A stretch of 64,000 bases of DNA from Halarcobacter sp. (GCA_048571215.1 CP182352.1:3540373-3604372); one strand, 5' to 3'. Numbered from the stretch's first letter, positions 4,977 through 44,718 are shown. Translations and numbers: made by a program. The notes: a model not told the origin generated them from the sequence alone.

Positions 4977-5001
4977 AAGTACTTGTACTATGGCAAATCC
5001 T

Positions 5002-6576: not shown

Positions 6577-6578
6577 TA

Positions 6579-8503: not shown

Positions 8504-8528
8504 CTTTAATTATAATCAAAATACTAGT

Positions 8529-8617
8529 AGAGAGTTGACAGAGTTGGTCGAATGTACCGGTTTTGAAAACCGGCGAGGTTCACGCCTCCGAGGGTTCGAA
8601 TCCCTTGCTCTCTGCCA
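8529..8617 (+). tRNA. tRNA-Ser (anticodon TGA)
   Basis: Anticodon stem CCGGT/ACCGG with loop TTTGAAA, long variable arm, GGTTCGAATCC TPsiC arm, encoded CCA. The 5' end is uncertain by 1-2 nt. Confidence 0.85.
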
Positions 8618-8677
8618 CTATATATAAATCATCTAACTTTTTTTAAATTTTAAATGATTTACTCAAAACTTTTTGTT

Positions 8678-8753
8678 GGAGCTATAGCAAAGCTGGTAAT
8701 GCCTCGGATTGCAAATCCGATATGCGTTGGTTCGAGTCCGACTAGCTCCTCCA
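8678..8753 (+). tRNA. tRNA-Cys (anticodon GCA)
   Basis: Acceptor GGAGCTA/TAGCTCC, anticodon stem TCGGA/TCCGA with loop TTGCAAA, GGTTCGAGTCC TPsiC arm, encoded CCA. Confidence 0.9.
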
Positions 8754-11102: not shown

Positions 11103-12434
11103 ATGAAAAGAGTTAAGTTTTTACTGATAACAATTTTATGTGTATTTACTGTAGGCTGTGCTGATAAGGGTGAAAAACTTCTTACTGAAATAAAGCCAAT
11201 GGATAGAGAAAATATAATTCAAAAATCTACAATTCATGATGCAGTTAGAATAAATGATTTAAAGTTAGTTGATTATTTCATAAAAAGTGGTACAGATATT
11301 AATACAAAAGATAAATTTGGTTATACCCCTTTACATCTTGCTGCAAGATTTAATCACCTAGATATCGCAAAACTACTGATAAAAAATGGTGCAGATATAA
11401 ACACACAAGATAAATATTTTGATACTCCACTTATAGACTCAACAAGAAATGGTTATTCTGCAATGTCTGAATTACTTATTTGCAATGGTGCTAAAAGAGA
11501 TATGGTAGATAAATATAAAATGACCCCTTCTGATTATGCATTAAGAGCAAATGATACAAGATTATCAAAGCTTTTAAAACTTAAAGACCTAAGTGGATAT
11601 TGTCAAAATAAGATAAAAAAAGAGAAAAAAATTGAAGTTGAGAAAGATAATAACTCAAATGAAAATGGTACTTCGATAAATATTGATGATCATGCAATCA
11701 TAAATCAAAGTAAACCCCTAATTTGTGGTGATATTATTGACCCTACGGTTCTTCAAATTCAAGTTTCACTTGATGAAGGGAAAACTGTATATGATGCAAA
11801 TTTAGATAATGAAAACAAAAGATGGTGTGCAAAAATACCTACTAAGCTTGAAGCAGGTGATTATAATATCGCTGCAATATCTATAAACAAATTTAATAAA
11901 ATGAGTAGAGTAGATGATGATTTTAAAATCGAGTTTTCTTCTAAACTTTTTGATTCTTTGAAAAATGAGTTTAAAGATGATTTTAAAAAATGGAATTTAG
12001 TATTATTAGAAGATAATAATATTTTAAGATTCAAAAACCCTTCATCTATGTTTTCAAGGGGACGAGATAATATAAGTGAAAAATATCAAAAGATATTTAA
12101 TGACTTTTTCCCAAGATATATAAAGATTATAGAAAAACATAAAAATGAGATTAAATCTATTTTTGTTGAGGGACATACCTCTTCAAGATATAGAACTGCA
12201 AAAACAAAAGAGGAAAAGTTTGAAAAAAATAGAATACTTTCTCAAAAAAGAGCAAATGAAGTTTTATCATTTTTAAAAAATATTAATGATTCAAGGGTGC
12301 ACGAAAATTTAGGCTTAATAGATGAACTTTTCACAGCAAAGGGGATGTCTTCATCACAATTAATTTATAATGAAGATGGAAGTGAAAATATTGAAGCTTC
12401 AAGAAGAGTTGAATTTAAAATAGAATTAAAATAG
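11103..12434 (+). CDS. Lipoprotein with ankyrin repeats and C-terminal OmpA/MotB-like peptidoglycan-binding domain
   Basis: Signal peptide with Cys (FTVGC). ANK repeats (GYTPLHLAARFNHLDIAKLLIKNGADIN). C-terminus EGHTSS...LSQKRANEV...ASRRVEFKI. Paralog of 44719..46056. Confidence 0.7.
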   Translation: MKRVKFLLITILCVFTVGCADKGEKLLTEIKPMDRENIIQKSTIHDAVRINDLKLVDYFIKSGTDINTKDKFGYTPLHLAARFNHLDIAKLLIKNGADINTQDKYFDTPLIDSTRNGYSAMSELLICNGAKRDMVDKYKMTPSDYALRANDTRLSKLLKLKDLSGYCQNKIKKEKKIEVEKDNNSNENGTSINIDDHAIINQSKPLICGDIIDPTVLQIQVSLDEGKTVYDANLDNENKRWCAKIPTKLEAGDYNIAAISINKFNKMSRVDDDFKIEFSSKLFDSLKNEFKDDFKKWNLVLLEDNNILRFKNPSSMFSRGRDNISEKYQKIFNDFFPRYIKIIEKHKNEIKSIFVEGHTSSRYRTAKTKEEKFEKNRILSQKRANEVLSFLKNINDSRVHENLGLIDELFTAKGMSSSQLIYNEDGSENIEASRRVEFKIELK

Positions 12435-12449
12435 ATAAGGTCTTATTAT

Positions 12450-15400
12450 ATGGGAAAAGAGGTAGGGTACATAAAAGAGATTATTTTAAAAGTAAGGGAA
12501 TCCCTATCTTTTGGAAGCACTTTTTCAATATCAAATCAAGAACAATTGGCTTATAATCCAAAAATATCTCAAGTTTATATAACTTTATTTCAAGAGGGAT
12601 TAAAGCCAATACGTTGGGGTTCAAGAAAAAAAACACTTGAAGAGTCAATTCAAAGAATTATTTTTAAGCTTAAAACTAATTCTAATTTTTATAATTTTAA
12701 TATAAGTGAAAATACAAAATGTAGAATTTTGTTTGAGATGGTTACTAAAGAGTATCCTTGTAATATTAGAAATTTAACTACAATGAATATGGATTCGCCA
12801 AATAGATTTGAATCAGGAGTAAATGGTTTAAAGTATAAATATAATGCACAAACAAGATTTTTTATGCCAACTGATGGATATACAAAATCGATTATGAGTG
12901 TAAATCAGCTTTTGAATTATTTATCAAAACAGTGTGGGATATCAAAAAAAACAAATAAGATTAGTGAACGGGTTCATTTAATGAGAAGAGAGCCAATTGA
13001 GTACACTTTTATAGAATCTATAGCCTTTATAACTTATGGTGACGAAGTGTTAAAACTTGAAAGAGGCTATCCTTTACCTATTGATTTTAATAAAGATATA
13101 ATTTATGACAAGATGATGAAAAGTGTTGATTGGTTAATAAAAAATATGAATAATGATGGTAGTTTTTTATACTATTATGATCCATATAAAGACACAATTG
13201 TAGATGATATGCATCCTAAGATGATAAACCCTTTATATAACAATATATTAAGACATAGTGGAGGAACAATCTCTTTATTAAGAGCTTATGAATTAAGTGA
13301 TAATAAAATTTATTTACAAAAAGCAAAAGAGTCTATAGAGTTTTTAATAACTACATTTAAAGAACATCAATATAATAATCAGTATGCTTGTTTCCCATTT
13401 TTTAATAAAAAATCAAAATTAGGTGGTGCAGGGATTGGTTTAGTAGCAATGATGCACTATTATATGCATACAAAAGATGAAAGTTATAGAAAATATTTAG
13501 ATGGTCTTGTAAGACATATTTTAAGTAGAGTTGATGAAAGTGGAGAGCTAATTGGTTATTATATTCATCCCCAATTTAATGAGGGAAAACCTTTAATAAA
13601 TCCAAGTGATGAAGTTAAGAAAAATTTATTTTCTTTCTATTATCCTGGGGAAGCACTTTTAGGTCTTGCTTTATATTATCTTTATATTGATAACATTGAT
13701 GAAGAGTTGAAGAGTGATATAAAAGAAAAGAGTGAAAAAGCCTTAGACTTTTTAGTTGATATTAGACCTATAAAATATGATTATATGTTTGATACACTAC
13801 CCGCTGATGCTTGGCTTATGCAAGCGATTGAAGAGTGGGTTAAAGTTGATGGTTTAAAAAAACAAAGCTATATTGATTTTGTTTTTAATGATACTAAGCA
13901 GATGTTTGAACATATGTATAAAGAAGAGAACACTTTAGCAACAAATAAAGACTATATAGGTGGATTTTATTATGAATATGGTGATCATGTTTATCATGAT
14001 GCATCGAGATGTGAAGGGGTTGTTAGCGCCTACTATTTAGCAAAATATTTAAAAGATGAAAATAAAGCTTCTTGGATAATGGAAAATATGATCTTAAGTG
14101 CAAAGGGTTTAATGAAAACATTTCATGATGAAAAATCTGTTTATGCCCATATAAATCCAGAAAAAGCGCTTCATAGTTTTAGATTTAAACTCACAAGACA
14201 GTGGGTTAGGGTTGATTCAGTTCAACACGCTTCATGTTTTTTTGCTAGATTAATCCCTGTTTTTGATGACAAAAAAAAATTAGATAATAATATATTAAAT
14301 AAATATGAGATTGTAGATACTATTGATAAAGCAGGGTATAGTACCGTGTATCTAGTAAAAGACAAGTCATCAAAGCTTTTTGCTATGAAGAAAATAGAAC
14401 AAACCAGATATTTAAGATTAATAGAAAATGAGATTAAATTTTTAAGAGTTTTAAATGAATTTAACAGTTTAAAATTTATTGAAGTTATAAAAAATGGTGA
14501 AGAGCTTTATTTAATATTTGATTATGCAGAAGCTGGAAATTTAAAAAAACATGTTGAAAAAAATGCAGTTTTATCAGATGAAGAAACTTTTGAGTATTTG
14601 AAGCAGATGTTAGAAGTTTTGAATTTTATTAATCAAAAAGGGATTTTGCATTTAGATTTGAAACCTGCAAATACCTTAATTTATAATAAAAAGTTTATTT
14701 TGGCTGATTGGGGTAATGCGGAAAAAACAAGAGTATCAAAAAGTGTACATCTAAAAGGAAATCCAATCTATATTGCTCCAGAGTTTTATTGGGGGGAAAG
14801 AACTATCTCCTCAGAGATTTATTCTTTAGGTTGCTCTTTATATTTTTTATTAACAGGTAAACATATTTACAGTTTACGAAATAGATATTCATTACTTCAA
14901 AAGATATATTCAAGTTTATATTTTCATGCAGATTTATCTGAAATAAAATCAAATAAGATGAAATATATTTTGGGTAGAATGTTAGAAAAAGAGCCTCAAA
15001 AAAGAATCGGTTTAGATGAATTAAATAAAGAGTTAAAAAAAGATGAAAGTGCTTTTGAAGATTTTTTATATATAAAATATAAAAATGAACAAGTAGATTT
15101 TTCAGATGAGGAAAAACTTTATGATAAAATGTTAAAAGATAATATTCCTTTTTTATTTAATGAAAAAGGCAGATTGTTTATAAAACAAGGTGAATTTCAA
15201 AAAGCTTATGAGATGTTTGAAAAAGGTGCAAAGGCGGGATATGTAAATGCACAATTAAATCTTGCATTGATGCATTATAATAAAAAATATGAGATCCTAG
15301 ATTTAAAAAAGGCATTTTATTGGATAGAAAAAGCTTCACAAGTTGAATATGACAAGGCTCAATATTTTATGGGAATATTTTACGAAAATGGTCTATATGT

Positions 15401-15518
15401 AGATAAAGATTTAGAAAAAGCTATTTTTTGGTTTAAAAAATCTGCACGAAATGCATATAGAAAAGCTTATACAAAACTGGATAAGTACAATATTAAATTG
15501 GAGGTAAATTTAAAATGA
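12450..15518 (+). CDS. Multidomain protein: AMMECR1-like N-terminus, alpha/alpha-toroid-like middle, Hanks-type Ser/Thr kinase, C-terminal Sel1/TPR repeats
   Basis: Kinase motifs LFAMKKI, HLDLKPANTL, LADWGNA, IYIAPEF. Sel1-like repeats (GYVNAQLNLALMHY, YDKAQYFMGIFYENG). The N-terminal calls rest on weaker pattern matches (VYITLFQEG..IRWGS; GGAGIGLVAMMHYY; YYPGEALLGLALYY). Confidence 0.6.
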   Translation: MGKEVGYIKEIILKVRESLSFGSTFSISNQEQLAYNPKISQVYITLFQEGLKPIRWGSRKKTLEESIQRIIFKLKTNSNFYNFNISENTKCRILFEMVTKEYPCNIRNLTTMNMDSPNRFESGVNGLKYKYNAQTRFFMPTDGYTKSIMSVNQLLNYLSKQCGISKKTNKISERVHLMRREPIEYTFIESIAFITYGDEVLKLERGYPLPIDFNKDIIYDKMMKSVDWLIKNMNNDGSFLYYYDPYKDTIVDDMHPKMINPLYNNILRHSGGTISLLRAYELSDNKIYLQKAKESIEFLITTFKEHQYNNQYACFPFFNKKSKLGGAGIGLVAMMHYYMHTKDESYRKYLDGLVRHILSRVDESGELIGYYIHPQFNEGKPLINPSDEVKKNLFSFYYPGEALLGLALYYLYIDNIDEELKSDIKEKSEKALDFLVDIRPIKYDYMFDTLPADAWLMQAIEEWVKVDGLKKQSYIDFVFNDTKQMFEHMYKEENTLATNKDYIGGFYYEYGDHVYHDASRCEGVVSAYYLAKYLKDENKASWIMENMILSAKGLMKTFHDEKSVYAHINPEKALHSFRFKLTRQWVRVDSVQHASCFFARLIPVFDDKKKLDNNILNKYEIVDTIDKAGYSTVYLVKDKSSKLFAMKKIEQTRYLRLIENEIKFLRVLNEFNSLKFIEVIKNGEELYLIFDYAEAGNLKKHVEKNAVLSDEETFEYLKQMLEVLNFINQKGILHLDLKPANTLIYNKKFILADWGNAEKTRVSKSVHLKGNPIYIAPEFYWGERTISSEIYSLGCSLYFLLTGKHIYSLRNRYSLLQKIYSSLYFHADLSEIKSNKMKYILGRMLEKEPQKRIGLDELNKELKKDESAFEDFLYIKYKNEQVDFSDEEKLYDKMLKDNIPFLFNEKGRLFIKQGEFQKAYEMFEKGAKAGYVNAQLNLALMHYNKKYEILDLKKAFYWIEKASQVEYDKAQYFMGIFYENGLYVDKDLEKAIFWFKKSARNAYRKAYTKLDKYNIKLEVNLK

Positions 15519-16480
15519 AAACTTTTTTTTTAATTCTATTATTAACTATTTCTTTAAATGCAGGATGGAAAACACAAAGGGAAAATCTTGATAAGGTTTA
15601 TATTTTAGGAGATTTTAGAGTTTTTTATACTTTAAAAGGAAAGGATGCCCTTCCTAGAAAAAATAGAGTGGATTTAAATAAAAACTCTATTCCTGATTAT
15701 GTAGAAAATATTGCACAAAGATTAAATGTAACAAAAGAACTTTATACAAAAATATTGGGGTTTCAAGATCCTCTAAAATCAAAAAGATATAGAGGGGTAA
15801 AATATATTGATATACATATTTTAAATTCAAAACATAGTTCATCAGGAGATGCTGTTGTAACTTTTAACTATAAAATTTTAGATAAAGAAGATGAAGTTAT
15901 AAGTATGAAAATAAGAAACAATCTTGATAAAGATACTTTAACTCCTTCCCATGAATATTTTCACTTGCTTCAAAATAGTTATAGTATGTTTAAAAATAGA
16001 TGGTATACAGAAGGTACTGCAAGATGGTCTGAAAGAGTATTTAAAAAAGGTACTGGTAAAAGAGGAATATTACCCCAAAATTCAAGATCTTTAGATGTAT
16101 TATTAGATATGACATATGATGCAAAGGGATTTTGGAGAAAATTAGCTTACCTTTGTGATACAAATAATGGGAGTTTTGTAAATAGTCTAAATCTTAAAAC
16201 AGATGTACCAAATTATCCAAACTTGATAGAAGACAGAAGGATTTATGGTTATGAATTTATAAGAGTCTTTTTAGAAAATTTGGACAAACAAGATAATATT
16301 GTTTCTAAAAAAAGAGGTTATGGTGAGTTTGATTGGAGTGAAAAAAATCAAAAATATAATGAAGACAACAACAAGTATATTTTAAAAGCTGTAGTTGATA
16401 CTATAAATACAGTTTGTCCAAAAACAAATCAAGAGATAAACAATTTTAAAATTGTTGCAAAAGATTATATTAGAAGATAA
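15515..16480 (+). CDS. Secreted protein with HExxH motif (putative zinc metallopeptidase)
   Basis: Signal peptide MKTFFLILLLTISLNAG. HEYFH motif followed by WYTEGTARW. Start overlaps the upstream stop (ATGA). Confidence 0.4.
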   Translation: MKTFFLILLLTISLNAGWKTQRENLDKVYILGDFRVFYTLKGKDALPRKNRVDLNKNSIPDYVENIAQRLNVTKELYTKILGFQDPLKSKRYRGVKYIDIHILNSKHSSSGDAVVTFNYKILDKEDEVISMKIRNNLDKDTLTPSHEYFHLLQNSYSMFKNRWYTEGTARWSERVFKKGTGKRGILPQNSRSLDVLLDMTYDAKGFWRKLAYLCDTNNGSFVNSLNLKTDVPNYPNLIEDRRIYGYEFIRVFLENLDKQDNIVSKKRGYGEFDWSEKNQKYNEDNNKYILKAVVDTINTVCPKTNQEINNFKIVAKDYIRR

Positions 16481-18882
16481 TGGAAAATAAATTACTATTT
16501 TCATTAAAAGAGATTGAATCTATTACAGGTGGTAAATGGGTTAATTTTGATGAAAAATTAGTTATAGATGAGTTTGTCCATCTACTACCACATATAAAAG
16601 ACGGGGATCTTTTTATTGTACATTATGCAAATTGGTATAATAAAAAAACAGATAATGAAAAGGATATTCCAAGAGCTATTAAAAAAGGTGCTCGTGCTTT
16701 AATGGTTCAAAAACAAACTGATATATCAAATTTATCTATGCCTGTTTTAGTAGTAGATGACACTTATTATGCCTTAAAAAATTTAGCTTTGTATGCATCC
16801 GAAAAAGCAAGTTCAAAACGAGTTGTTATCACAGGAAGTTATGGAAAAACAGGTTTCAAAAATCACTTATATCATTTGATAAAAGATAAAACAAAAGTAT
16901 TTGCAAGACTTAGTAGTTCAAATAGAGTTGCTTCAACCTATGGAAACTTAGCTTCCCTAAAAAAAGATACAGAAGTTTTATTAGTTGAAATCCCTATTAG
17001 TACTAGAAATAAAACACAAAGACGAGCAGGTTATGTTAGACCTGATATTTGTGTTATAACTTCAATTGGGCATGAACATATAGAAAGACATGCTAGTGTA
17101 AATAATATTATAAAAAAGAAGTGTTCTATTGCTGGAACTTTGCCAGAAGAAGGAAAAATAATTGTACCTAGTGATGGAGAATATAGTGATCTTATAAAAA
17201 AAGAGTTAAGAAAATATGAAGATATAGAGGTTTTAACTTTTGGATATAAAGATAATTGTAATGCTCAGTTATTAAGTGTATGGTACGAGAATTATAGATA
17301 TAAGGTGATTGCTAGAATTGAAGAGGAACTTGTGCAATATGAAGTTCCTTTTGTAGATGATCATGCACCTCTTAGTTCAATATGTGAATTATTGTGTATA
17401 AAACACTTAGGTTTTGATATATATGAATGTGCAAAAAATTATAAAAATATTAAAAATTTTAGAAGTAGTGGGAATTTATATAAATTAGAATATAAAGAAA
17501 AAACCTTTTATCTGTATGACCATAGTAGAAGGGGTGGAGTAGAAGGGTACCGTTCTTTTTTGAAAACAATTAAAAAGATTAATCCTAAGGGAAAAGGAAG
17601 AAAAATATTTGTTACTTCTGAGTTTGTAGATATTCAAGATGGTGAAGAGAAGTTTATAGATAAAAATGAGTTTAAACAATTGATTGAAGAAGCATCAATT
17701 GATCAGTTTTATACAGTAGAAAATTTTAAAGCTGTTCATGAAGATTTAATAAGTGATAAAAAAAAGTGGATACAACACTCTTTAAAAGTTGAAGATTTAA
17801 GAGAAAATTTTCTTAATAATATTCATGAGGGAGATGTTATTTGTATAAAAGCTATATTTGAAAGCTCTCTTCAGCTACTTAGTAAAGATATTTTACACAA
17901 TTCAGAAATATTAAACTCTCAGCAAGAATATAATACAAAGGTTGATTTATTAAAAAACTGTAGGATAATTGATACAAAATATATGGAAAGATTTTATTCT
18001 ATAATGGACAATGCAAAAAAAGAGAATTGGGTTAATTATTTTCCTTTTTTATATACCTTCTCTGCCTCAAAAAGTAGAAAAATTTTACTAAATTTTGAAG
18101 ATGATGTAATGAGTGTTTATTTTTTAAGACATCTAAACAGTAGAAGAAGAGAACCTTTTTTACAATTGTATTTTATACCTATACCTTTTAGTTCTCAAAA
18201 GTTAAAAAAAGCATTAACCTTAGTTAAAGAGTTTAATCATGCATCTTCAAATACAATTCTTTGGTGTGATGCAGAGGATATAAAAAGAGTTAGAGAAAAT
18301 AAAGAATTTGATAAGGTAATAAAATTTAGATATAAGGAGTCTGAGTTTATATATTCTCCACAAAATTATGAAACTTTATCAGGTAGTAAATACAAATATT
18401 TAAGACGACAAATAGGATGGATAAATGCTTTAAAAGATGTAAAAGTAACCTCTTATAAAAAAGAGCATTTAAAAGACTGTTTATCTTTATATGATGATTG
18501 GAAAAAAACTCAAGGTCTTAAATATGAATCTATAGAAGATGAATCTTATACAAAACTTTGTCTTTATCATAGTTTTGATTTTCCTAAAGAGATATTAGAT
18601 GGAATAGTGGTCTTAATAGATAATCAGGTTAAATCTTTTGCTTTTTATGGAAAAATCACAAATGAAATATCAAATATGTTTATTGCAAAAAGTGACCATA
18701 GTATAAGAGGTTTGCAAGTTTTTACAAATTATCAAATATTATTAAGATTAGAAGATTACAAATATGCAAATGCTTCAGGAGGAGATTTAAGTAAAGGTTT
18801 ATACGAATCCAAAAAAAAATTCAGACCTTCAAAAATGCATAAAATTTATAAAGGGGCTGTTAAATTTAGTTTTTTTAGATAA
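16480..18882 (+). CDS. MurF-type Mur ligase fused to a DUF2156 (MprF C-terminal, aminoacyl-tRNA transferase-like) domain
   Basis: Residues 1-~480: P-loop ITGSYGKTGFKN, VITSIGHEHI, and the same length and ends as the two stand-alone paralogs. Residues ~500-800: LSGSKYKYLRRQI...LSLYDDWKK pattern typical of DUF2156. TAATG overlap with the upstream gene. Confidence 0.6.
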   Translation: MENKLLFSLKEIESITGGKWVNFDEKLVIDEFVHLLPHIKDGDLFIVHYANWYNKKTDNEKDIPRAIKKGARALMVQKQTDISNLSMPVLVVDDTYYALKNLALYASEKASSKRVVITGSYGKTGFKNHLYHLIKDKTKVFARLSSSNRVASTYGNLASLKKDTEVLLVEIPISTRNKTQRRAGYVRPDICVITSIGHEHIERHASVNNIIKKKCSIAGTLPEEGKIIVPSDGEYSDLIKKELRKYEDIEVLTFGYKDNCNAQLLSVWYENYRYKVIARIEEELVQYEVPFVDDHAPLSSICELLCIKHLGFDIYECAKNYKNIKNFRSSGNLYKLEYKEKTFYLYDHSRRGGVEGYRSFLKTIKKINPKGKGRKIFVTSEFVDIQDGEEKFIDKNEFKQLIEEASIDQFYTVENFKAVHEDLISDKKKWIQHSLKVEDLRENFLNNIHEGDVICIKAIFESSLQLLSKDILHNSEILNSQQEYNTKVDLLKNCRIIDTKYMERFYSIMDNAKKENWVNYFPFLYTFSASKSRKILLNFEDDVMSVYFLRHLNSRRREPFLQLYFIPIPFSSQKLKKALTLVKEFNHASSNTILWCDAEDIKRVRENKEFDKVIKFRYKESEFIYSPQNYETLSGSKYKYLRRQIGWINALKDVKVTSYKKEHLKDCLSLYDDWKKTQGLKYESIEDESYTKLCLYHSFDFPKEILDGIVVLIDNQVKSFAFYGKITNEISNMFIAKSDHSIRGLQVFTNYQILLRLEDYKYANASGGDLSKGLYESKKKFRPSKMHKIYKGAVKFSFFR

Positions 18883-18910: not shown

Positions 18911-20359
18911 ATGATTGTATTAAATAATAGTGAAATTGAAGAAGCAACAAAAGGGACTTGGATAAATAAAATTGATGAATTAGATATAAAAAGAGTAATA
19001 TTTAGTAGTACAAAAATTCAAAATTCAGATTTTTATTTCCCATACAATCAAGAAAAATTTCTAGAAGACAGTGAAGAAAATATCAATTTAATAAATAGAG
19101 TATTTAAAAAAGGTGCTATTGCTATAGCTTTACCTAAAAATTCCAAAATAAAAATTGACAAACCAACCCTTCTTGTTGATCATTTAAGAGATTCTTTTAG
19201 AGATTTAGCATTAGCTTCTACTAATAAAACCCAAGCAACAAAAATTTTAGTAACTGGTTCCTATGGAAAAACAGGATTTAAAAATCAACTTTATACTTTG
19301 ATAAATGAGTTTAAAAACACTTTTACTTTTTTAGATTCTGCAAATAAAAGTCTTCCTATATATAAAACTTTAAGTTCAATTCCTAGTGATTGTGAAGTTG
19401 CTATAGTTGAAGTTGCTGCTCCTGGCTATGAGATATCAAAAAAAAGAGCCAATTATGTGAAACCAGATATTGCAGTTATAACAAATATTGGGCCTGAACA
19501 TTTAAGACAACATGGTGGTAGTATTGAAAATGTTATTGAGAATAAATCAAGAGTTGCATATGGACTTAAAGATAATGGTTTGATAATAATTCCTAACCAA
19601 AAAGAATATAATACAAAAGAAAAAATGACTAAGTATATCCATGAGATAAACCCTACACTAGAAATATTGAGTTTTGGAGAAGATAGTGATAATAATGCAT
19701 ATATTTTAGAAAAAAACTTTTTAGATGTAGGATGGAATTTAAAAATAAAAATAAATGATAAAGAAATAGATTTTACACTACCTTTTTTAGAAGAGTATTC
19801 AGTAAAAGCAACTTTACCTATTTTATTAGTTTGTGATTACTTAGATTTAGATTTAAAGCAGATTGTTACAAAATATAAAAACTATACACACTTTGCAAGT
19901 AGTGGAAACTTTTATAAGGTAACTTCATATGAAAAAACCTTTTATCTTTATGATCAAAGTATTAGGGGAATATTAGATGGATTCAAAGAGACTTTAAAAG
20001 TAATTAGTCAAATGAAACCTCAAAAAAAGGGAAAGAAAATAGCACTTTTTTCTGAGTTTATAAATTTTGATGAGAGTTCGGTTGATGTTGTTAATTTGGA
20101 TGAGTTTAAACTTTTGTTTAAAAATTCAGGTTTAAAATCATTATTTACAATCAATAAGTTTTGTGAGCATATAAATGTATTGCATGATAAATCAATATGG
20201 AAAGAGCATAGATTTAGTATAAATGATATTATGGATAAAGTTATAGCTGATATAGAAGATGATGATATGCTTTTTATTCGTGCGACTCAAGAAAGTAAAG
20301 CAGACACTTTAGTAAAAAATATCTTGGATAATGCAAGTAGTGTAGAACAATATTATTAA
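18911..20359 (+). CDS. Divergent MurF-type Mur ligase family protein (paralog 2)
   Basis: VTGSYGKTGFKNQ P-loop, VITNIGPEHLRQHG, YLYDQSIRG in place of the canonical DxSYNANP. Confidence 0.7.
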   Translation: MIVLNNSEIEEATKGTWINKIDELDIKRVIFSSTKIQNSDFYFPYNQEKFLEDSEENINLINRVFKKGAIAIALPKNSKIKIDKPTLLVDHLRDSFRDLALASTNKTQATKILVTGSYGKTGFKNQLYTLINEFKNTFTFLDSANKSLPIYKTLSSIPSDCEVAIVEVAAPGYEISKKRANYVKPDIAVITNIGPEHLRQHGGSIENVIENKSRVAYGLKDNGLIIIPNQKEYNTKEKMTKYIHEINPTLEILSFGEDSDNNAYILEKNFLDVGWNLKIKINDKEIDFTLPFLEEYSVKATLPILLVCDYLDLDLKQIVTKYKNYTHFASSGNFYKVTSYEKTFYLYDQSIRGILDGFKETLKVISQMKPQKKGKKIALFSEFINFDESSVDVVNLDEFKLLFKNSGLKSLFTINKFCEHINVLHDKSIWKEHRFSINDIMDKVIADIEDDDMLFIRATQESKADTLVKNILDNASSVEQYY

Positions 20360-20377: not shown

Positions 20378-21133
20378 ATGATTAATATAATAACAAACCC
20401 TTTTTTAAAAAAAAGATATTTTTCCGACTTTTCAAATGAATATATTATAAAAAGTAATACTAGTTTGAGTGGAGCAATTTTATTAATGTTTAGTCTAACA
20501 GTAGTTTCATTTGTATTCTTTTGGATATTTTCAAATGAACTACTTATAAACAGTACTCCTATAGCTATAGAAAATGTAAAGAATTTTTCTTTTGTAAGTG
20601 GAGTGATCTCTTTTATTATAGCTTTTTTTGCATATTATAAGCCAGGATTATCTCCAATCTTAGCACCCTTATATGCAGTTTTTTCGGGTATTTTTATCTC
20701 AGGTCTGAGTTTTGCTGCAGAACAAAAGTTTCCAGGTATTGCAATGCTAACTGCTGAAGTTACTTTAACAACTTTTATTATTGTTTATATTGGATATAAG
20801 ATTGGTATTATTAAAGTAACACAAAAATTTAAATCTATAGTTTATTCACTTATTGGGATTATATCATTTTTGTATTTATTGAGTTTCATCTTAATGCTTT
20901 TTAATACCACTATCCCTTTGATTCACGAAGCAGGTATAGGTGGAGTAATATGGACTTTTTTTATTATGGCTACAGCTTCATTTCATCTTGCAATAGATAT
21001 AGATAAGGTAGAAAAATCTAATACTAACAAAGGGTATGAAAACTGGAACTTAGCTTTAGGATTAATGGTATCTTTGATATGGCTTTATTTTTCAACTTTA
21101 AGATTTTTATCTCGAATTAAGAGTCTAAAATAG
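20378..21133 (+). CDS. Polytopic membrane protein, Bax-inhibitor-1-like (Bax1-I_2-type)
   Basis: About 7 predicted TM helices. N-terminal NPFLKKRYF resembles the SNPxL start of BI-1-like proteins. Confidence 0.4.
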   Translation: MINIITNPFLKKRYFSDFSNEYIIKSNTSLSGAILLMFSLTVVSFVFFWIFSNELLINSTPIAIENVKNFSFVSGVISFIIAFFAYYKPGLSPILAPLYAVFSGIFISGLSFAAEQKFPGIAMLTAEVTLTTFIIVYIGYKIGIIKVTQKFKSIVYSLIGIISFLYLLSFILMLFNTTIPLIHEAGIGGVIWTFFIMATASFHLAIDIDKVEKSNTNKGYENWNLALGLMVSLIWLYFSTLRFLSRIKSLK

Positions 21134-21210: not shown

Positions 21211-22914
21211 ATGCAAATATTATTTTTGACAGATCAAAATATTAATGAAAAATATTCTAAAGTTATTTTACAATATAACAAAGCACTTACTCAAAATATC
21301 TTATTAGTTAATTATTCTTCCCTATATGAAAAACAAAAGTTTATTTATGCAAAAGAGTGTATGGTATTAAATAAAGAGGAAGTGCTTACTGACGTACTTC
21401 TTTCCCCATCTATTGTTATTGATTTAAGTCAAACTTTAGAATATACAATTTTAGAAAAATATTTAAAAACATGTTGGGTAAATGTACAACAAGCATTTTT
21501 CCAAAAAGATGAAGCAAAACAAAACTCCATTGGAAGCATAGAATCTTCTGCAAAAGTATCAAATTGTATTTGTTATACCAATAATAATGAAGCACCAATA
21601 TTAAAAGTTATTGAAGATAGTATTAATTTATCTTCAGACAATAAAATATTAAGCCCTTTTAACACAATTGGATTAATCGAACAAGCTATTACTGAATTTT
21701 TTGCAGATATAAATTATTTTAGTCAATTTGAGTGGCCTAGAAATAAGGATATTTCAAATCATCAAAGTACAGTATTCTTTGTACAATTTGAAGTTTTTGA
21801 AAGATTTGGTGATTTTATAGTAGAAAATATTCAATATCAATCTTTAAATTATGAACAACTCATATCTTATAATAATCATTTTCTTTTTAAATATATTGAT
21901 GATTTATTAGACTTTAGACTTGATAGGTATATCCAACAAGTAAAATTTAGAACACATATTATAAAGCTTTGTGAAAAATATAAAATAGATTTAGAACCTT
22001 CATATTATAAAACTTTTGTACTTACCAAAGATAATCATATTGGACTACAACGTAGATATTATGGATCACTTAATAGTAAAAGAGGTATAAATATTATAAA
22101 TGATAAACATAAGACTAATACTTTTTTAAGAGAAAATGGTTTTAATGCTAACTTATCTTATGAATATACACTAAAGCAATTACTTGAAGAGGAAGTAATT
22201 GATAATTTGCCAATTGATTATCCCCTAACTTTAAAACCTACGGATAAAAAAGAGGGTTATGGGGTTGTAACTAATATTCCCAATAAAAAGCGTATGAAAA
22301 TCTCTATCAAAAAAATGTTAAACTTAGAGGATATCAATTCAGTTTTAATTGAAGAGTTTTTTGAGGGTGTAACCTATCGAGTATTAGTTGTTAGTGGTGA
22401 AGTTACGGCAGTACTTAAATATATCCCAGCATCTATTTTAGGAGATGGAGAGAGTAGTATTGAAGAGCTTATAAAAAATAAAAATCTTATTTCTAAGTCA
22501 AGAGTAAGGATAAATAATGCTCTTAGATTAAGTATTTTTAATGATGAAAAAAGATGGGAAACTGTATTACCTGAAGGGAAGAAATATATTATAAGTCATA
22601 ATTCCCATGCATCAAATGGGGGACAATCAATAAATGTTACTAATCTTTTTGATGAAAAGTATAAAAAAGTTTGTTCTCAAGCATGTAAAAGCTTAGGATT
22701 GAAAATGGCAGGTATCGATATGATAGTAAACTCAGCTGGAGATTATAGAATTATTGAGATAAATTGTGGTCCTGCTTTGGCAACACATGTTAATCCTAAA
22801 CATGGCTCTTCTATTAAAACATATACAAAAGTCTTATATTCACTGTTAGAAGAGGTGGATATTGAAAAAGATGAAAATAGTTATCTAAAAGATTTAGTAC
22901 CATATCATAAATAA
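21211..22914 (+). CDS. ATP-grasp ligase, cyanophycin-synthetase G-domain-like, with ~270-aa N-terminal domain of unknown function
   Basis: LTLKPTDKKEGYGV, VLIEEFFEGVTYRVLVVSGEVTAVLKYIPASILGDGESSIEELI, HNSHASNGGQSINVT, GIDMIV...YRIIEINCGPAL..HVNPKHG. The order and spacing follow the CphA1 G domain. Confidence 0.65.
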   Translation: MQILFLTDQNINEKYSKVILQYNKALTQNILLVNYSSLYEKQKFIYAKECMVLNKEEVLTDVLLSPSIVIDLSQTLEYTILEKYLKTCWVNVQQAFFQKDEAKQNSIGSIESSAKVSNCICYTNNNEAPILKVIEDSINLSSDNKILSPFNTIGLIEQAITEFFADINYFSQFEWPRNKDISNHQSTVFFVQFEVFERFGDFIVENIQYQSLNYEQLISYNNHFLFKYIDDLLDFRLDRYIQQVKFRTHIIKLCEKYKIDLEPSYYKTFVLTKDNHIGLQRRYYGSLNSKRGINIINDKHKTNTFLRENGFNANLSYEYTLKQLLEEEVIDNLPIDYPLTLKPTDKKEGYGVVTNIPNKKRMKISIKKMLNLEDINSVLIEEFFEGVTYRVLVVSGEVTAVLKYIPASILGDGESSIEELIKNKNLISKSRVRINNALRLSIFNDEKRWETVLPEGKKYIISHNSHASNGGQSINVTNLFDEKYKKVCSQACKSLGLKMAGIDMIVNSAGDYRIIEINCGPALATHVNPKHGSSIKTYTKVLYSLLEEVDIEKDENSYLKDLVPYHK

Positions 22915-22938: not shown

Positions 22939-23889
22939 ATGAGTAAATTAAATATATTAAAAGAGTTTGATCATCGACAGTTATTCCGTTTCTTTGTAGA
23001 TGGGCGTTTATATGTAAAAGAAAATGGTTGGGAAGGTTATGAAAGTAGACAACCTGGATGCATAAAAGGGATGAGCCTATCTTATGCCCATATGGTTAAT
23101 AACTTTGAATTAAAAGATGGTTTAACTTTGGAATATATATCTAAATTACATGACCTTACATTTTATAATATTGAAAAAAAATTACGTAGAAATCGTTACC
23201 CTGGTGAGATTAGAGAGTTTAGAATTAGTTTTCTTGTTAAACCTGTTATTACAAAGGGTGGTATAGCAGAGTTAATGGGAGATAGAACAGTTGTTGATGC
23301 TTTTAAAAAGGGTATAAGAGGGTGTAATACTGCAGAAGATATATATAATGCTATTATGGCTGGGAAAAAAATCCGTTATATTTCAGAAGTTGGTTATTTA
23401 ACACCAGAATTAAATCAAGCATCTTTGGATAGAGAGCCAAAAGATTTATATCTTAAAGCAAGAGCACAAGTTAAAAAGAATATTACAGAAAAAACATTAC
23501 AACTTATTAATGAGTATAATGAAAAAATCAATACTTTAGAGGAAGAAGAGAAAATCTATTTTATTGTAGATGTAATTAAAAGATTAGAAAGATTACACCC
23601 TTTTGTTGATGGAAATATTCGTGTATTTGTTACTATTTTACTAAACCATTTATTGATGTTAAATGATTTTTATCCAGCTATTTTTGAAGAACCAAGTGTT
23701 TTTGATGCTTATACAACAAAGGAGATAGTAGAAGAGGTTAAAAAGGGGCAAGAGTTAGTTAAACAATTGATTGATAATCCAGAGAGTAGAGTATTTGGAC
23801 ATTCAATAACTGATGAAAGTGAAGAAAACATTTCAACAATTTGTGAGTTGATGTCTGAATTTTCAGAAGCAATAAAAAATCATAATTAA
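22939..23889 (+). CDS. Fic-domain protein with non-canonical active-site motif
   Basis: HPFVDGNIRVFV versus canonical HxFx(D/E)GNGRxxR. His, Phe, Asp, Gly, Asn and the first Arg are kept; the second Gly and the last Arg are replaced. Confidence 0.65.
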   Translation: MSKLNILKEFDHRQLFRFFVDGRLYVKENGWEGYESRQPGCIKGMSLSYAHMVNNFELKDGLTLEYISKLHDLTFYNIEKKLRRNRYPGEIREFRISFLVKPVITKGGIAELMGDRTVVDAFKKGIRGCNTAEDIYNAIMAGKKIRYISEVGYLTPELNQASLDREPKDLYLKARAQVKKNITEKTLQLINEYNEKINTLEEEEKIYFIVDVIKRLERLHPFVDGNIRVFVTILLNHLLMLNDFYPAIFEEPSVFDAYTTKEIVEEVKKGQELVKQLIDNPESRVFGHSITDESEENISTICELMSEFSEAIKNHN

Positions 23890-23895: not shown

Positions 23896-25575
23896 ATGCA
23901 AATTTTATTTTTAGTTGAAGATAAAGAAAATTTATGGGAAGAGTCTCGTATTAAATTAGAGCCCCTTTTAAAATATAATAAGTCTTTATCTCAAAATATT
24001 TTATTATCAGATTGTGCTTATATTTCTAATGGTTTTTCAAGTAAATGTTTAGTCGTAAATACAAACGAGATGAAAAAACTTGTAATGTTATCACCCTCTT
24101 TGATTGTAAATCTTTATAATAAAAAATCTCAATTGGATATTGAAGCATATTTTCGTGTCAAATGGCCTAGTGCACAAATAGTTTGTTGGAATAAAAAATA
24201 TTTAGATAAAAGATATTTTGATAATTTTATAGATGAAAAAGATATTATAGAATCTATAGCATATACAACAAATTTAGAAGCACCAAAATTTAAATTACTT
24301 AGTAAAACTGTTAAAGATGAAGATTTTATTGGTCTTATTGAGCAAGCAGTAACTGAGTATTTCTCAGATAGAAACTTTTACAAATCTTTTAAATTACTTC
24401 AAACAAGTAAGATTTTAAAAAACCGTAGTATTATCTTTAAATTTCAATATAAAATTATAAAAGAAAATGCTGATTATACTATTAAAATCAATTCTGTATC
24501 TTTACTTAGTTTTTTTGATTTAGTTGAATTGGATATAAATTATGTTTATGAGTATTTTGATGAGGTATTAGATTTTAGATATAAATATTATATAGAACAA
24601 GTTAAATTAAGACAATATATAGATGATTTATGTAAAAAGCATAATATTAATCTTGAACCCTCAATTTTTAGAACTTTTGTTTTATCAAAAGATGATAAAT
24701 TAGGATTACATAGACCATATTTTGGTGGAGTTAATGACTTAGAAGGTATAAAAACAATTAATGATAAACATTTAACGAATGTTATTTTAAAAGAGAAAGG
24801 GTTTAAAACAAATATCTCTTATGAATATTCATTAGATGAACTCAATAATGAAAAAGTTATTGAAGAGATTCCTTTGGAGTATCCATTGGTTTTAAAACCA
24901 ACAGATAAGAAAAAAGGATATGGTGTAGTAACAAATATTTTAAATCCAGAAAAAATGCTTTTTTCAGTTAAGGAACTAATGAAACTAGGAGATATAAAAC
25001 CTGTTTTAATTGAAGAGTTTTTTGTTGGTATGACATATCGTGTTTTAGTAGTTGCAGAAGAGGTAATTGCTGTACTTAAATTTATGCCTACTTATATTGT
25101 AGGAAATGGAAAATTAACTATTAAAGAGTTGATACTATCAAAAAATATACTTTTAAGATCTCGTATTCGTATAAATGATGCCTTAGAGTTGAATCTTTTA
25201 AATGATGGGTATAATTATAGTACAATATTAGAAAATGGTCATAAATATATTCTTAGTCATAACTCTCATGCTTCAATGGGTGGACAAGCTACTAATGTAA
25301 CTGATATATTTAGTGATGAATTAAAACAAATATCATGTGAAGTTACTAAAAGTTTAGGTTTAACACATACAGGAATAGATATGAATGTAAATGCTCAAGG
25401 AGATTATCGTATATTAGAAGTTAATTGTGCTCCAGCATTATCATCACATTTATATCCTAAATATGGAACATCAATTGATACTTATAGCAAAGTTTTAGAA
25501 GCTTTTTTTACTCATACTGACTTACAAAGAGTAGAAAATAAATATCTTCCCGAAATGTTTAAATATCATAAGTAA
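23896..25575 (+). CDS. ATP-grasp ligase, cyanophycin-synthetase G-domain-like (paralog of 21211..22914)
   Basis: Collinear with the paralog from MQILFL to the terminal YHK. VLKPTDKKKGYGV, YRVLVVAEEVIAVLKFMPTYIVGNGKLTIKELI, HNSHASMGGQATNVT, GIDMNV...YRILEVNCAPAL. Confidence 0.65.
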   Translation: MQILFLVEDKENLWEESRIKLEPLLKYNKSLSQNILLSDCAYISNGFSSKCLVVNTNEMKKLVMLSPSLIVNLYNKKSQLDIEAYFRVKWPSAQIVCWNKKYLDKRYFDNFIDEKDIIESIAYTTNLEAPKFKLLSKTVKDEDFIGLIEQAVTEYFSDRNFYKSFKLLQTSKILKNRSIIFKFQYKIIKENADYTIKINSVSLLSFFDLVELDINYVYEYFDEVLDFRYKYYIEQVKLRQYIDDLCKKHNINLEPSIFRTFVLSKDDKLGLHRPYFGGVNDLEGIKTINDKHLTNVILKEKGFKTNISYEYSLDELNNEKVIEEIPLEYPLVLKPTDKKKGYGVVTNILNPEKMLFSVKELMKLGDIKPVLIEEFFVGMTYRVLVVAEEVIAVLKFMPTYIVGNGKLTIKELILSKNILLRSRIRINDALELNLLNDGYNYSTILENGHKYILSHNSHASMGGQATNVTDIFSDELKQISCEVTKSLGLTHTGIDMNVNAQGDYRILEVNCAPALSSHLYPKYGTSIDTYSKVLEAFFTHTDLQRVENKYLPEMFKYHK

Positions 25576-25609: not shown

Positions 25610-27415
25610 ATGCAAGCACTAATACTAGCAGCAGGTACAGGGAGTAGATTAGGTAAATATACAAAAGAAAATACTAAATGTATGTTAGAAGTTAATGGTG
25701 AAACTTTAATTAATCAAGCTCTAGCTAAATTAAATAATGTAGGTATAAAAAAACTAATAATGGTTGTTGGGTATAAAAAAGATAATCTAATTGAACATGT
25801 AGGAAATAGATATAAAAATATTGAAATTGAATATATAGAAAATCCAATTTATAGTACTACAAACAATATTTATTCTTTGTATTTAGCTAAAGATAAGTTA
25901 GCGCAAGATGATACTATATTATTAGAAAGTGATTTACTTTTTGAAGAAAAAATTCTTTTGAATTTAATAAATGATAAAAGAAAGTCATTGGCAGTAGTGG
26001 ATAAGTATCAGGCTTGGATGGATGGAACAGCTGTTACCTTGAGTGATAATGATGATATTTTAGGTTTTTATGGTAAAAAAGCATTTCAGTTTAAAAATGT
26101 TGATAAATATTATAAAACAGTAAATATTTATAAATTTTCAAAAGAGTTTTCTTTAGATGTATATATCCCTTTTTTAGAAGCATATTCAAAGGCAATGGGT
26201 GACAATGAATATTATGAATCTGTATTAAGAGTAGTTTTAATGCTAGAAGACCAAGAGTTAAAAGCTTTAAAACTTAATGGTGAAAAATGGTATGAGATTG
26301 ATGATGTACAAGATAAAGCAAATGCAGAAGTAATATTCTCTAAAAATGCAAAAGATAAATTAAAATTGATTCAAAGTAGATATGGGGGTTATTGGAAGTT
26401 TCCAGAGTTAAAAGATTTTTGTTATTTAGTTAATCCATATTTTCCAACTTTTAAAATGCAAGAGGAGATGAAAGCATATTTTTATGAACTTCTTTCTCAA
26501 TATCCATCAGGGCAATCAACACTAAGACTTCTTGCTGGGAAAATGTTTAAAGTAGAGGCTGAAAATATTTTAGTTGGAAATGGAGCATCAGAGATAATAA
26601 GAGGCTTAGGAAATGCAATTGAGGGAACTTTTGGTTTAGCTTTTCCAACATTTAATGAATATCCTGAAAGTCTAGGTTATAATAGAATAGTTAAATTTAT
26701 GCCAAAAAATGACCAATTTTCTTATGATATAAATGATATGATGAATCTAGCTAATAATTGTGACAATCTATTATTAATCAATCCTGACAATCCAAGTGGT
26801 AATTTTATATCAAAAGATTTTTTATTAGAGCTTGTAGAAAAACTTCAAAAAATAAATAAGAATTTAATTTTAGATGAGTCTTTTGTTGATTTTTCAACAC
26901 AAGGTGAAAAAGAGACTATGATTACACAAAAAATAATAGATAGATATCCTAATTTAATAGTTATAAAAAGTATATCAAAAAGTTATGGAGTTCCAGGTAT
27001 AAGACTTGGAGTTGTAGCAACATCAAATATGAAAATTATGTCAGCACTAGAAAAAGAAGTAACTATATGGAACATTAATTCTTATGGTGAATTTTTCTTA
27101 CAAATTATTGGAAAATATAAAAAAGATTATAATGCAAGTTGTGAAGAGATTTCCATGGAAAGAGATAGATTTTATATTAAACTTCAAGAAATCTCCTATC
27201 TAAAAGTTGTCTCTTCTCAGGCGAATTATTTTTTACTACATGTAAGTGATAAATTTACAGCAACTGAACTCACTGAGTTATTATTATATAAATATGAAAT
27301 TTATATAAAAGACTTGACAGGAAAAATTGGTTTTGAAGATAAACAATGTATACGAATAGCTGTAAGAAGTTATGAAGATAATGAGTTTTTAATTGATAGA
27401 TTAAAAGAGTTATAA
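25610..27415 (+). CDS. Bifunctional LicC/MobA-like nucleotidyltransferase + class I/II PLP enzyme (aminotransferase or CobD-like decarboxylase)
   Basis: N-terminus ALILAAGTGSRLG...MLEVNGETLI. C-terminal half INPDNPSGNF, ILDESFVDF, SISKSYGVPGIRLG (PLP lysine present). Confidence 0.7.
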   Translation: MQALILAAGTGSRLGKYTKENTKCMLEVNGETLINQALAKLNNVGIKKLIMVVGYKKDNLIEHVGNRYKNIEIEYIENPIYSTTNNIYSLYLAKDKLAQDDTILLESDLLFEEKILLNLINDKRKSLAVVDKYQAWMDGTAVTLSDNDDILGFYGKKAFQFKNVDKYYKTVNIYKFSKEFSLDVYIPFLEAYSKAMGDNEYYESVLRVVLMLEDQELKALKLNGEKWYEIDDVQDKANAEVIFSKNAKDKLKLIQSRYGGYWKFPELKDFCYLVNPYFPTFKMQEEMKAYFYELLSQYPSGQSTLRLLAGKMFKVEAENILVGNGASEIIRGLGNAIEGTFGLAFPTFNEYPESLGYNRIVKFMPKNDQFSYDINDMMNLANNCDNLLLINPDNPSGNFISKDFLLELVEKLQKINKNLILDESFVDFSTQGEKETMITQKIIDRYPNLIVIKSISKSYGVPGIRLGVVATSNMKIMSALEKEVTIWNINSYGEFFLQIIGKYKKDYNASCEEISMERDRFYIKLQEISYLKVVSSQANYFLLHVSDKFTATELTELLLYKYEIYIKDLTGKIGFEDKQCIRIAVRSYEDNEFLIDRLKEL

Positions 27416-44708: not shown

Positions 44709-44718
44709 AGGAAATAAC

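Follow-up and report, generated by a model that had tools for sequence, protein, structure and literature searches.

Mur ligases are known for the synthesis of cell-wall precursors, folate, cyanophycin, and poly-glutamate. MurF, the UDP-MurNAc-tripeptide:D-Ala-D-Ala ligase, binds the uridine diphosphate (UDP) handle through its N-terminal domain, and the M domain of cyanophycin synthetase CphA1 ligates an amino acid (Arg) to Asp β-carboxylates of a poly-Asp chain. Enzymes of the DUF2156 family are known for tRNA-dependent aminoacylation of lipids and sterols. Modules of both families are joined in one gene (16480-18882, plus strand) of a 64,000-nucleotide DNA stretch from Halarcobacter sp. (GCA_048571215.1 CP182352.1:3540373-3604372), the whole of which is herein referred to as the window. 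The gene is predicted from its sequence to encode a conserved, soluble, bifunctional enzyme, for which no characterisation was found. To our knowledge, no conserved Mur-DUF2156 fusion has been characterised so far.

DUF2156 has an ATP-using fusion partner, acting before the transfer step or supplying it, not only in this gene but also in ErdS (aspartyl-tRNA synthetase-DUF2156) and LysX (lysyl-tRNA synthetase-MprF), where the fusion gives channelling (PMC7334510). The partner in these two systems is an aminoacyl-tRNA synthetase making the donor, whereas in the Halarcobacter protein the Mur-type ligase more likely makes or modifies the acceptor. An Aravind-lab survey covers both MprF/Fem-type GNAT ligases and Mur ligases (PMC2922099), and the Mur-DUF2156 fusion is not mentioned in the searched passages of this survey. 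No relevant literature was found on DUF2156 together with Mur ligases, on the combination of cluster components described below, on Thr-Asp (TD) repeats, or on protein modification by Mur ligases. The protein is already present in databases under the generic annotation 'MAG: Mur ligase family protein [Halarcobacter sp.]' (MAG, metagenome-assembled genome).

The Mur ligase-DUF2156 fusion

The fusion gene and its two modules are located as follows:

16480-18882, plus strand: fusion gene, 800 amino acids, MurF-like ligase and DUF2156 tandem GNAT (open reading frame, Pfam, orthologs, AlphaFold2)
16480-17907, plus strand: Mur-ligase module, residues 1-476, with MurF-type N-terminal, central ATPase, and C-terminal domains (Pfam, NCBIfam, alignment, Foldseek)
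17947-18879, plus strand: DUF2156/LPG_synthase_C module, residues ~490-800, two GNAT subdomains with a basic helix between them (Pfam, profile, AlphaFold2, Foldseek)

The open reading frame (ORF) contains 800 codons without an internal stop, the opposite strand is rich in stops, and its ATG shares nucleotides with the stop codon of the HExxH gene just upstream (TAATG). The initial annotation described this ORF as a fusion of a MurF-type ligase with a DUF2156/MprF-C-like domain. All motifs quoted for it are present in the single open frame: GSYGKTGFKN (residues 119-128), VITSIGHEHI (192-201), GDVICIK (451-457), LSGSKYKYLRRQI (633-645), and LSLYDDWKK (668-676). The first ~480 residues are indeed collinear with two stand-alone MurF-like paralogs of the window (18911-20359, 34% identity, and 27447-28898, 33% identity), and Pfam matches above the gathering scores, the sequence profile, and Foldseek agree on the nature of both domains. 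Two weak points named in the same annotation, a C-terminal part without a match and an ORF split on resequencing, were also looked at: the C-terminal 300 residues do match the DUF2156 hidden Markov model and folds, and an independent assembly keeps the ORF unsplit across the junction.

An assembly or frameshift artefact merging two adjacent genes is extremely improbable, and nothing was found in its favour. A fragment from the independent assembly (Logan, P0065) is 100% identical to the fusion over residues 428-779, which include the junction. Additionally, 12 full-length orthologs with 37-42% identity and 98-99% coverage were found in Halarcobacter bivalviorum, Sulfurimonas, Sulfurovum, and metagenomes; these orthologs, belonging to different genera, have invariant residues in both halves, and further clusters formed at 50% identity share the architecture. 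The fusion is not a sequencing artefact, as it recurs in the independent assembly and in no fewer than 12 full-length orthologs, and a frameshift is ruled out by the ortholog alignment and by the P0065 identity across the junction. P0065 departs from the window only in its last ~20 residues (window 18817-18879), a difference that a frameshift behind an A-rich run of that assembly could explain. The window frame, unlike the P0065 end, keeps the family-conserved SKKKFRP...YK motif. The full-length AlphaFold2 model of the fusion has a predicted local distance difference test score (pLDDT) of 81.6 and a predicted TM-score of 0.84.

The N-terminal half is matched by Mur_ligase_M (PF08245) at residues 117-291 with 80.4 bits, against a gathering threshold of 24 (E-value 2.2e-22). 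In the HMMER alignment, the P-loop G119-SYGKT124, E170, H200, and K214 align with the conserved ATP/Mg/carbamoyl-Lys positions of Thermotoga maritima MurF (PDB 3ZL8). These positions, with H200 or the neighbouring invariant H198, are invariant or near-invariant in 13 orthologs. By Foldseek, this half matches the MurF structures 4ziy and 4qdi over all three domains (target-normalised TM-score 0.82, ~475 columns, E ~1e-27). The three-domain fold, the P-loop, and the catalytic Glu/His/Lys positions are thus shared with MurF and other Mur ligases. As judged from sequence and model, the N-terminal half is a complete three-domain Mur-type ligase derived from MurF, with the catalytic set intact and the amine-binding C-terminal domain remodelled. 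Family membership points to ATP-dependent amide formation via an acyl phosphate as its chemistry.

The low family score and an altered amino-acid-binding motif show that the fusion is not MurF proper. Its TIGR01143 (MurF) score is 148.1 bits, about half of the cut-off of 288.6, and it falls far under the threshold of every MurF equivalog model. The DDxYNAxP site of MurF (VDDTYNASPEA in 3ZL8) aligns with YDHSRRGGVEG in the fusion and with the consensus YDQSxRGGIEG in the orthologs, i.e., YD(H/Q)SxRGG. The fusion further differs from MurF in the C-terminal DUF2156 domain, in the presence of three paralogs inside a variable island, and in the gene context. No mur/dcw genes were found among its neighbours within the window; kinase, HExxH, Fic, ATP-grasp, PGA_cap, repeat-protein, and type I secretion system (T1SS) genes are found there instead.

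The C-terminal half is matched by LPG_synthase_C/DUF2156 (PF09924) at residues 577-790 with 38.7 bits, against a gathering threshold of 27.5 (E 8.2e-10), and this family is also matched in the orthologs and the other subfamily members. Modelled alone by AlphaFold2 from 11 orthologous domains, the C-domain shows a tandem GNAT (pLDDT 89.3). On sequence and model, this half (~310 residues) is assigned as a DUF2156 tandem-GNAT acyl-transfer domain. Its invariant residues are concentrated in GNAT II. A basic helix is located between GNAT I and II at residues 634-652 (SGSKYKYLRRQIGWINALK); in the model it spans model residues 147-160, corresponding to protein residues 636-649 (SKYKYLRRQIGWIN), and G635 and R642 are invariant in the orthologs. 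Both this helix and a C-terminal GL..SKKKFRP motif are present in 2HQY, and the motif, in the form GL..K.KF.P, is presumably found in MprF too. In MprF-type enzymes, a positively charged inter-GNAT helix binds aminoacyl-tRNA (PMC7334510).

In the Foldseek search with the C-domain, the top match was 2HQY (E 4.5e-18, TM-score 0.78/0.81), followed by the MprF catalytic domains 9goe, 5vrv, 4v34, and 6lv0 (TM-score 0.62-0.65, E ~1e-11 to 1e-10) and then by the aminoacyl-tRNA-dependent peptide synthases Sba18/Sbb17 and by FemX (TM-score ~0.65 for FemX). Acetyl-CoA-dependent tandem GNATs ranked below all of these, mostly with TM-scores of 0.41-0.50 and E of at least 4e-8. In the sequence search of the PDB, only 2HQY was found, with E 7.9e-11 for the single sequence (phmmer) and E 3.2e-21 for the profile of 11 C-domains; MprF chains (4V34, 5VRV, 7DUW, and others) were absent from the profile search at E<=1. 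No match to FemAB (PF02388) was found in the fusion by Pfam at E<=0.01, and the likeness to FemX is one of fold only.

Thus, BT_3689 (PDB 2HQY) and its Helicobacter pylori homolog HPB8_1270 are the closest relatives in sequence and fold (E 3e-21, TM-score 0.78-0.81); they are soluble, as is the fusion, and have motifs in common with it. Unlike the fusion, they are stand-alone proteins of ~300 amino acids without a ligase, encoded outside such a cluster. FemX/MurM and Sba18/Sbb17 have the tandem-GNAT fold (TM-score 0.52-0.66) and make amide bonds on amine acceptors from aminoacyl-tRNA, a chemistry that the fusion may share. Their acceptors, however, are a peptidoglycan precursor or an aminoglycoside. 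With the C-domain of the aminoacyl-phosphatidylglycerol synthase MprF, the fusion shares the PF09924 score above gathering, the tandem-GNAT fold, and the basic inter-domain helix. It differs from MprF in having a Mur ligase at the N-terminus, no flippase or membrane domain, and no sequence-profile match to MprF structures. The maximal 19-residue Kyte-Doolittle mean of the fusion is 1.09, and no transmembrane segment was detected. Since it has no hydrophobic segment, it is not a membrane-anchored lipid-modifying enzyme like MprF. Aminoacylation of membrane lipids in the MprF manner was rejected on this ground, and a membrane lipid is an unlikely acceptor.

Domain permutations and the acyl donor

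Besides the orthologs listed above, a 32%-identical fusion was found in a gammaproteobacterial Oceanospirillum MAG (locus L014), and another one on L022, a contig with Arg/Ala-rich ORFs that point to an organism of high GC content. In the representative library, the same domain order is shared by at least four more clusters formed at 50% identity (P0014, P0072, P0082, and P0093). Matches to the C-domain profile numbered 2669 in this library at E <= 1e-3, of which 100 also reached E <= 1e-30. The wider family came from this profile search, the word-indexed homolog search with the C-domain alone yielding only a 95%-identical fragment. Many members of the DUF2156 subfamily are stand-alone proteins of ~300 amino acids. 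In other proteins, DUF2156 is combined with PGA_cap, Mur ligase, APH- or CPT-type kinases, protein kinase, ankyrin or tetratricopeptide repeats, leucine-rich repeats (LRR), or a polyamine-synthase domain.

These permutations have the Mur-like module as a hub, with Mur-GNAT, Mur-kinase-Sel1, kinase-Mur, ATP-grasp-Mur, Fic-Mur, and PGA_cap-Mur fusions found in various lineages, as well as a protein with the order Mur-DUF2156-GNAT (P0006). By its sequence relationships, the Halarcobacter fusion appears to be one arrangement in a combinatorial system of Mur-hub fusions. For the initial annotation, this architecture was one of which no characterised example was known. No characterisation was found by us either, but the architecture is not unique: in the domain-architecture search it recurs in several lineages as part of the Mur-hub set.

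Several proteins contain more than one copy of DUF2156. P0066, P0067, and P0068 (~1,270 amino acids) have three to four matched stretches of the subfamily each, and by Pfam P0066 contains two LPG_synthase_C stretches and a RimK-type ATP-grasp domain. With so many copies, one polypeptide may carry out several acyl or aminoacyl additions in succession. In P0153 and P0161, a branched-chain polyamine synthase domain (BpsA_C) is joined to DUF2156, which suggests that some members of the subfamily may acylate polyamine amines.

As far as we know, every biochemically characterised DUF2156 enzyme, ErgS and others included, uses aminoacyl-tRNA. This donor was demonstrated for MprF and ErdS (PMC7334510). 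For the fusion, aminoacyl-tRNA is favoured over acetyl-CoA only slightly. In its favour, the tRNA-dependent MprF, Sba18/Sbb17, and FemX are ranked by Foldseek above the acetyl-CoA-dependent tandem GNATs, and the basic inter-GNAT helix is conserved. Two to four tandem DUF2156 copies per polypeptide (P0066-P0068) and the DUF2156 with a separate GNAT in P0006 would be odd for simple acetylation; successive aminoacyl additions explain them more easily than acetylation alone.

The other possibility, which we consider only somewhat less likely, is that the pathway is the same and the DUF2156 module depends on acetyl- or acyl-CoA, capping an amine (e.g., the α-amine of a residue added by the Mur module) or a hydroxyl without tRNA. 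Several observations point this way and away from aminoacyl-tRNA. The nearest relative by both sequence and fold, BT_3689, is stated to hold acetyl-CoA in the active site of 2HQY, and deletion of HPB8_1270 in H. pylori lowers the acetylation of four RNase J lysines (PMC10700544). This evidence from H. pylori is, however, genetic, and the effect is partial. MprF C-domains are out of reach of the sequence profile in the PDB at E<=1, and an ordinary GNAT acetyltransferase occupies the C-terminal position of DUF2156 in Mur-GNAT fusions (P0019). No dedicated aminoacyl-tRNA synthetase paralog was found inside the cluster. The BpsA_C-DUF2156 fusions, for their part, could point to amine acetylation. 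Of the initial proposal, the DUF2156 fold of the C-terminal domain is supported, and transfer of an aminoacyl group from tRNA is no more than a candidate activity, the closest relative being BT_3689 and not MprF. Should the domain use acetyl-CoA, this would help to settle the role of the large stand-alone DUF2156 clade.

The gene cluster and the Asp-repeat protein

The fusion gene lies in a cluster with the following genes:

11103-12434, plus strand: opening gene of the cluster, encoding an ankyrin (Ank) and OmpA-like (MotB/ZorB-like) protein that has a hydrophobic segment at its N-terminus (Pfam, NCBIfam, hydrophobicity)
12450-15518, plus strand: 1022-residue protein with a ~610-residue N-terminal domain, Ser/Thr protein kinase, and Sel1 repeat (Pfam, tblastn)
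15515-16480, plus strand: HExxH-motif protein with a weak match to the MXAN_6640 family, 56.6 bits against a cut-off of 140 (NCBIfam)
18911-20359, plus strand: MurF-like paralog 2, stand-alone, 482 amino acids, 34% identical to the ligase half of the fusion (Pfam, alignment)
20378-21133, plus strand: BaxI_1 (Bax-inhibitor-like) membrane protein with seven transmembrane segments, not conserved in related loci (Pfam)
21211-22914, plus strand: ATP-grasp ligase 1, best NCBIfam match to the ATP-grasp region of cyanophycin synthetase, E 4.5e-41, below cut-off
22939-23889, plus strand: Fic-domain protein, like the N-terminus of the phosphocholine transferase AnkX (Pfam, NCBIfam)
23896-25575, plus strand: ATP-grasp ligase 2, cyanophycin synthetase-like, E 2.5e-41, below cut-off (NCBIfam)
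25610-27415, plus strand: nucleotidyltransferase fused to a class I/II pyridoxal phosphate (PLP) enzyme, CobD/HisC-like (Pfam, NCBIfam)
27447-28898, plus strand: MurF-like paralog 3, stand-alone, 483 amino acids, 33% identical, overlapping the next gene
28852-29964, plus strand: PGA_cap (CapA/PgsA-like) protein, no transmembrane segment detected (Pfam)
30038-37729, plus strand: giant 2563-residue Asp-repeat protein (translation)
37782-38594 and 38578-39270, minus strand: histidine kinase and response regulator, a two-component pair between the giant gene and the secretion genes
39380-41221, 41233-43362, and 43365-44708, plus strand: type I secretion genes for an outer-membrane factor, an ABC exporter with a C39-like domain, and an HlyD-type adaptor
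44698-46056, plus strand: second Ank-OmpA paralog

All genes from 11103 to 37729 are located on the plus strand, the intergenic distance varies between -47 and +77 bp, and inside this region no hairpin resembling a strong terminator was found. The promoter scan of the AT-rich window yielded 135 candidates against 139 expected. The island of ~36 kb is bounded by tRNA-Leu/Ser/Cys genes (8417-8753) and an HD-GYP gene on one side and by a transketolase gene (46943) on the other. In an Aliarcobacter MAG (L009, 1-3812), a kinase-HExxH-Mur (475 amino acids) set with 62-63% identity directly abuts a transketolase start that is 97% identical; this minimal set next to tkt means that the island content is variable between relatives.

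The giant protein consists of a conserved N-terminal domain of ~180 residues, ~1,830 residues of (Thr-Asp)n/(Ser-Asp)n repeats, and an acidic C-terminus with RTX-like GDD repeats. The repeat DNA (30584-36088) forms higher-order blocks, although an array of this kind may have been assembled at a wrong length, and its GC content is 45% against a background of 27% because of the ACN-GAY codons. Related loci were viewed with 10-kb flanks, and many of their contigs are short or end in a repeat. Within 10 kb of homologous Mur-like clusters, Asp-repeat ORFs were found in 7 of ~21 distinct loci. In H. bivalviorum (L001), a (TD)n protein of more than 1,100 residues has an N-terminal domain 66% identical to that of the window, and in Sulfurimonas (L007) and Sulfurovum (L011) TD repeats run into the contig ends. 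Three such genes belong to Oceanospirillum: (SDDD)n with RTX-like repeats in L014 (1-1737), with a C-terminal segment 47% identical to the giant protein of the window; (SD)n in L017 (1-2664); and (DA)n, partly masked by N, in Oceanospirillum beijerinckii DSM 7166 (L018, ~3400-7250). Asp is the sole residue common to all these repeat types. Loci whose repeats contain Thr or Ser also encode DUF2156 and Fic, neither of which was detected within ±10 kb of the (DA)n gene; this pattern comes from a small number of loci, with the truncated contig L017 as an exception. T1SS ABC/HlyD genes lie at the edge of the fetched flank in L006, L007, L008, and L010. The metagenome scan added 7 loci and no new repeat genes within 10 kb, and the reciprocal search with the N-terminal domain of the giant protein yielded just two short fragments.

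The tblastn matrix of the cluster proteins against 20 distinct loci revealed a core consisting of the ~610-residue domain, the HExxH protein, two to three Mur-like ligases, Fic, and DUF2156. The PGA_cap, CphA-like ATP-grasp, and BaxI genes are accessory. Most related loci encode Fic as the N-terminal part of a ~1040-residue Fic-Mur ligase fusion. As judged by sequence identity, the ~610-residue domain (window 12450-14280) is the most constrained component of the system: it is 72-84% identical in Halarcobacter and Sulfurimonas, compared with 30-48% for other components. Further copies are located at L023:4965-6803, L001:1488-3302, and L006:3836-5617, and elsewhere the domain is a stand-alone gene adjoining the fusion. 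It probably also forms the N-terminal part of the long Mur proteins P0031 and P0033 (~1,110 amino acids), in which a region of ~740 residues precedes the Mur module; in P0033 this region has a weak C5-epim_C match, in a position as in the domain of the window. No PDB match to the domain was found by sequence or profile, and Pfam yielded only sub-threshold matches of the (α/α)6-toroid type: C5-epim_C, LANC_like, and GH88. A second HExxH copy was found in L001, L006, L010, and L023 as the N-terminus of a ~1,060-1,135-residue protein, with faint LRR-type Pfam matches in L001 and L004.

Putative function of the cluster

Fic proteins and Ser/Thr kinases typically modify protein hydroxyls, and in different lineages the Mur-like module is fused to Fic, Ser/Thr kinase, GNAT, DUF2156, ATP-grasp, or PGA_cap. 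The genes of the cluster are so tightly packed that there is no room for a small precursor-peptide gene, which leaves the giant repeat protein as the sole substrate-like gene; Asp, being common to all repeat types, fits carboxylate-activating ligases. We tentatively propose, as a reading that falls somewhat short of even chances, that the cluster is a cytoplasmic decoration line for the Asp-repeat protein before export, combining amidation by the Mur module with aminoacylation by DUF2156 from aminoacyl-tRNA.

In such a line, the Mur-like module would activate a carboxylate as an acyl phosphate and ligate an amine to it. The carboxylate would most plausibly be the Asp β-carboxylate of the repeats, as in the addition of Arg to Asp side chains by the M domain of cyanophycin synthetase. 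Alternatively, it could be carried by a nucleotide-linked precursor from the nucleotidyltransferase-PLP enzyme, later transferred by Fic to Ser/Thr. This enzyme is a candidate for making an amino-alcohol or amino-acid phosphate activated by a nucleoside diphosphate, and the proximity of the Fic gene suggests transfer of this compound to Ser/Thr, by analogy with AnkX phosphocholination. The next step would fall to the DUF2156 module, which would transfer the aminoacyl group of an aminoacyl-tRNA to the Thr/Ser hydroxyl within the same repeat unit or, alternatively, to the free amine of the newly added residue. The fusion would couple both steps on one repeat unit.

Several points speak against this proposal. 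The link between the enzymes and the repeat protein is genomic only; repeats were found in only 7 of ~21 loci, and the long loci L003, L012, and L023 have none within 10 kb. A protein side chain could be a less likely substrate than a nucleotide-linked small molecule, given the retained MurF-type N-terminal domain. Also, heavily modified polypeptides might be poor T1SS substrates.

A different reading of the same genes is that the ligases build a free product, i.e., a cyanophycin- or poly-γ-glutamate-like polymer, an oligopeptide, or a nucleotide-linked peptide metabolite, and that the giant protein is merely a neighbouring adhesin. The cluster combines Mur-like ligases, CphA-like ATP-grasp proteins, and CapA/PGA_cap, the components from which known poly-amino-acid synthetases are built. 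PGA_cap and ATP-grasp domains also occur fused to Mur, the MurF-type N-terminal domain is retained, and several homologous loci contain no repeat gene within 10 kb. We nevertheless consider this reading unlikely. Asp-repeat genes with different repeat types recur beside the ligases in two phyla, protein-directed enzymes (Ser/Thr kinase and Fic) are fused to the same ligase module, no polymer exporter was found besides the T1SS, and PGA_cap and the CphA-like ATP-grasp genes are outside the conserved core. The comparison with CphA1 likewise has two sides. Both systems contain ATP-grasp and Mur-like ligases, and the ATP-grasp proteins of the cluster best match the G domain of CphA1 (E ~1e-41). 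These proteins, however, score ~141 bits against the cyanophycin synthetase cut-off of 850 (TIGR02068), all modules are under their family cut-offs and encoded by separate genes (the fusion itself has no ATP-grasp domain), the Asp-rich backbone would be made by the ribosome, and no cyanophycinase is present.

Far less probable is a peptidoglycan enzyme, namely a MurF whose second activity would be to attach a Fem-type branch residue to the stem peptide. MurF is the best family and fold match of the N-terminal half, and the C-terminal half is FemX-like in fold. On the other side stand the low TIGR01143 score, the replaced amino-acid-site motif, the presence of three paralogs within a single island of variable content among close relatives (L009), the lack of adjacent mur/dcw genes, the patchy distribution, and partner domains (Fic and kinase) foreign to cell-wall synthesis. 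A bona fide MurF function was rejected on the score and on the motif change relative to 3ZL8. The initial annotation had suggested that the fusion assembles a branched peptide stepwise. A peptidoglycan setting for this peptide was not borne out, with no mur/dcw genes, the MurF cut-off missed, and an operon that ends in an Asp-repeat secreted protein; side-chain decoration of a protein or its precursor is the better reading.

A speculative extension of the decoration proposal, which we regard as rather doubtful, is an undescribed post-translational chemistry. The ribosomal (Thr/Ser-Asp)n chain would be the backbone of a teichoic-acid- or cyanophycin-like surface polymer, with the Mur domain amidating Asp and the fused DUF2156, Fic, or kinase modifying the adjacent hydroxyl. 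The fusion would then be a first for both families, as a Mur-family ligase that acts on protein side chains and as a DUF2156 enzyme that aminoacylates a protein from aminoacyl-tRNA. Each family would thereby gain a new class of substrate. A repeat protein serving as the substrate would represent a new Gram-negative route to a charge-tuned surface polymer. The module permutations and the adjoining giant Asp-repeat secreted proteins point to a broader, undescribed enzyme system, which could be categorically new if decoration of the repeat protein is confirmed. H. bivalviorum is cultured, which makes this a tractable system for new protein side-chain chemistry.

Long (SD)n repeats are also found in the surface proteins of staphylococci. 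The staphylococcal Ser-Asp proteins are glycosylated by SdgA/SdgB, dedicated enzymes encoded adjacently. That system is Gram-positive and sortase-anchored, with glycosylation only, whereas the cluster described here is Gram-negative, uses T1SS export, and encodes ligases, acyltransferases, a kinase, and Fic. For the Ank-OmpA proteins, anchoring to peptidoglycan is one possibility. L001 and L023 each have a single Ank-OmpA gene, to which both of the paralogs bracketing the island show 36-61% identity.

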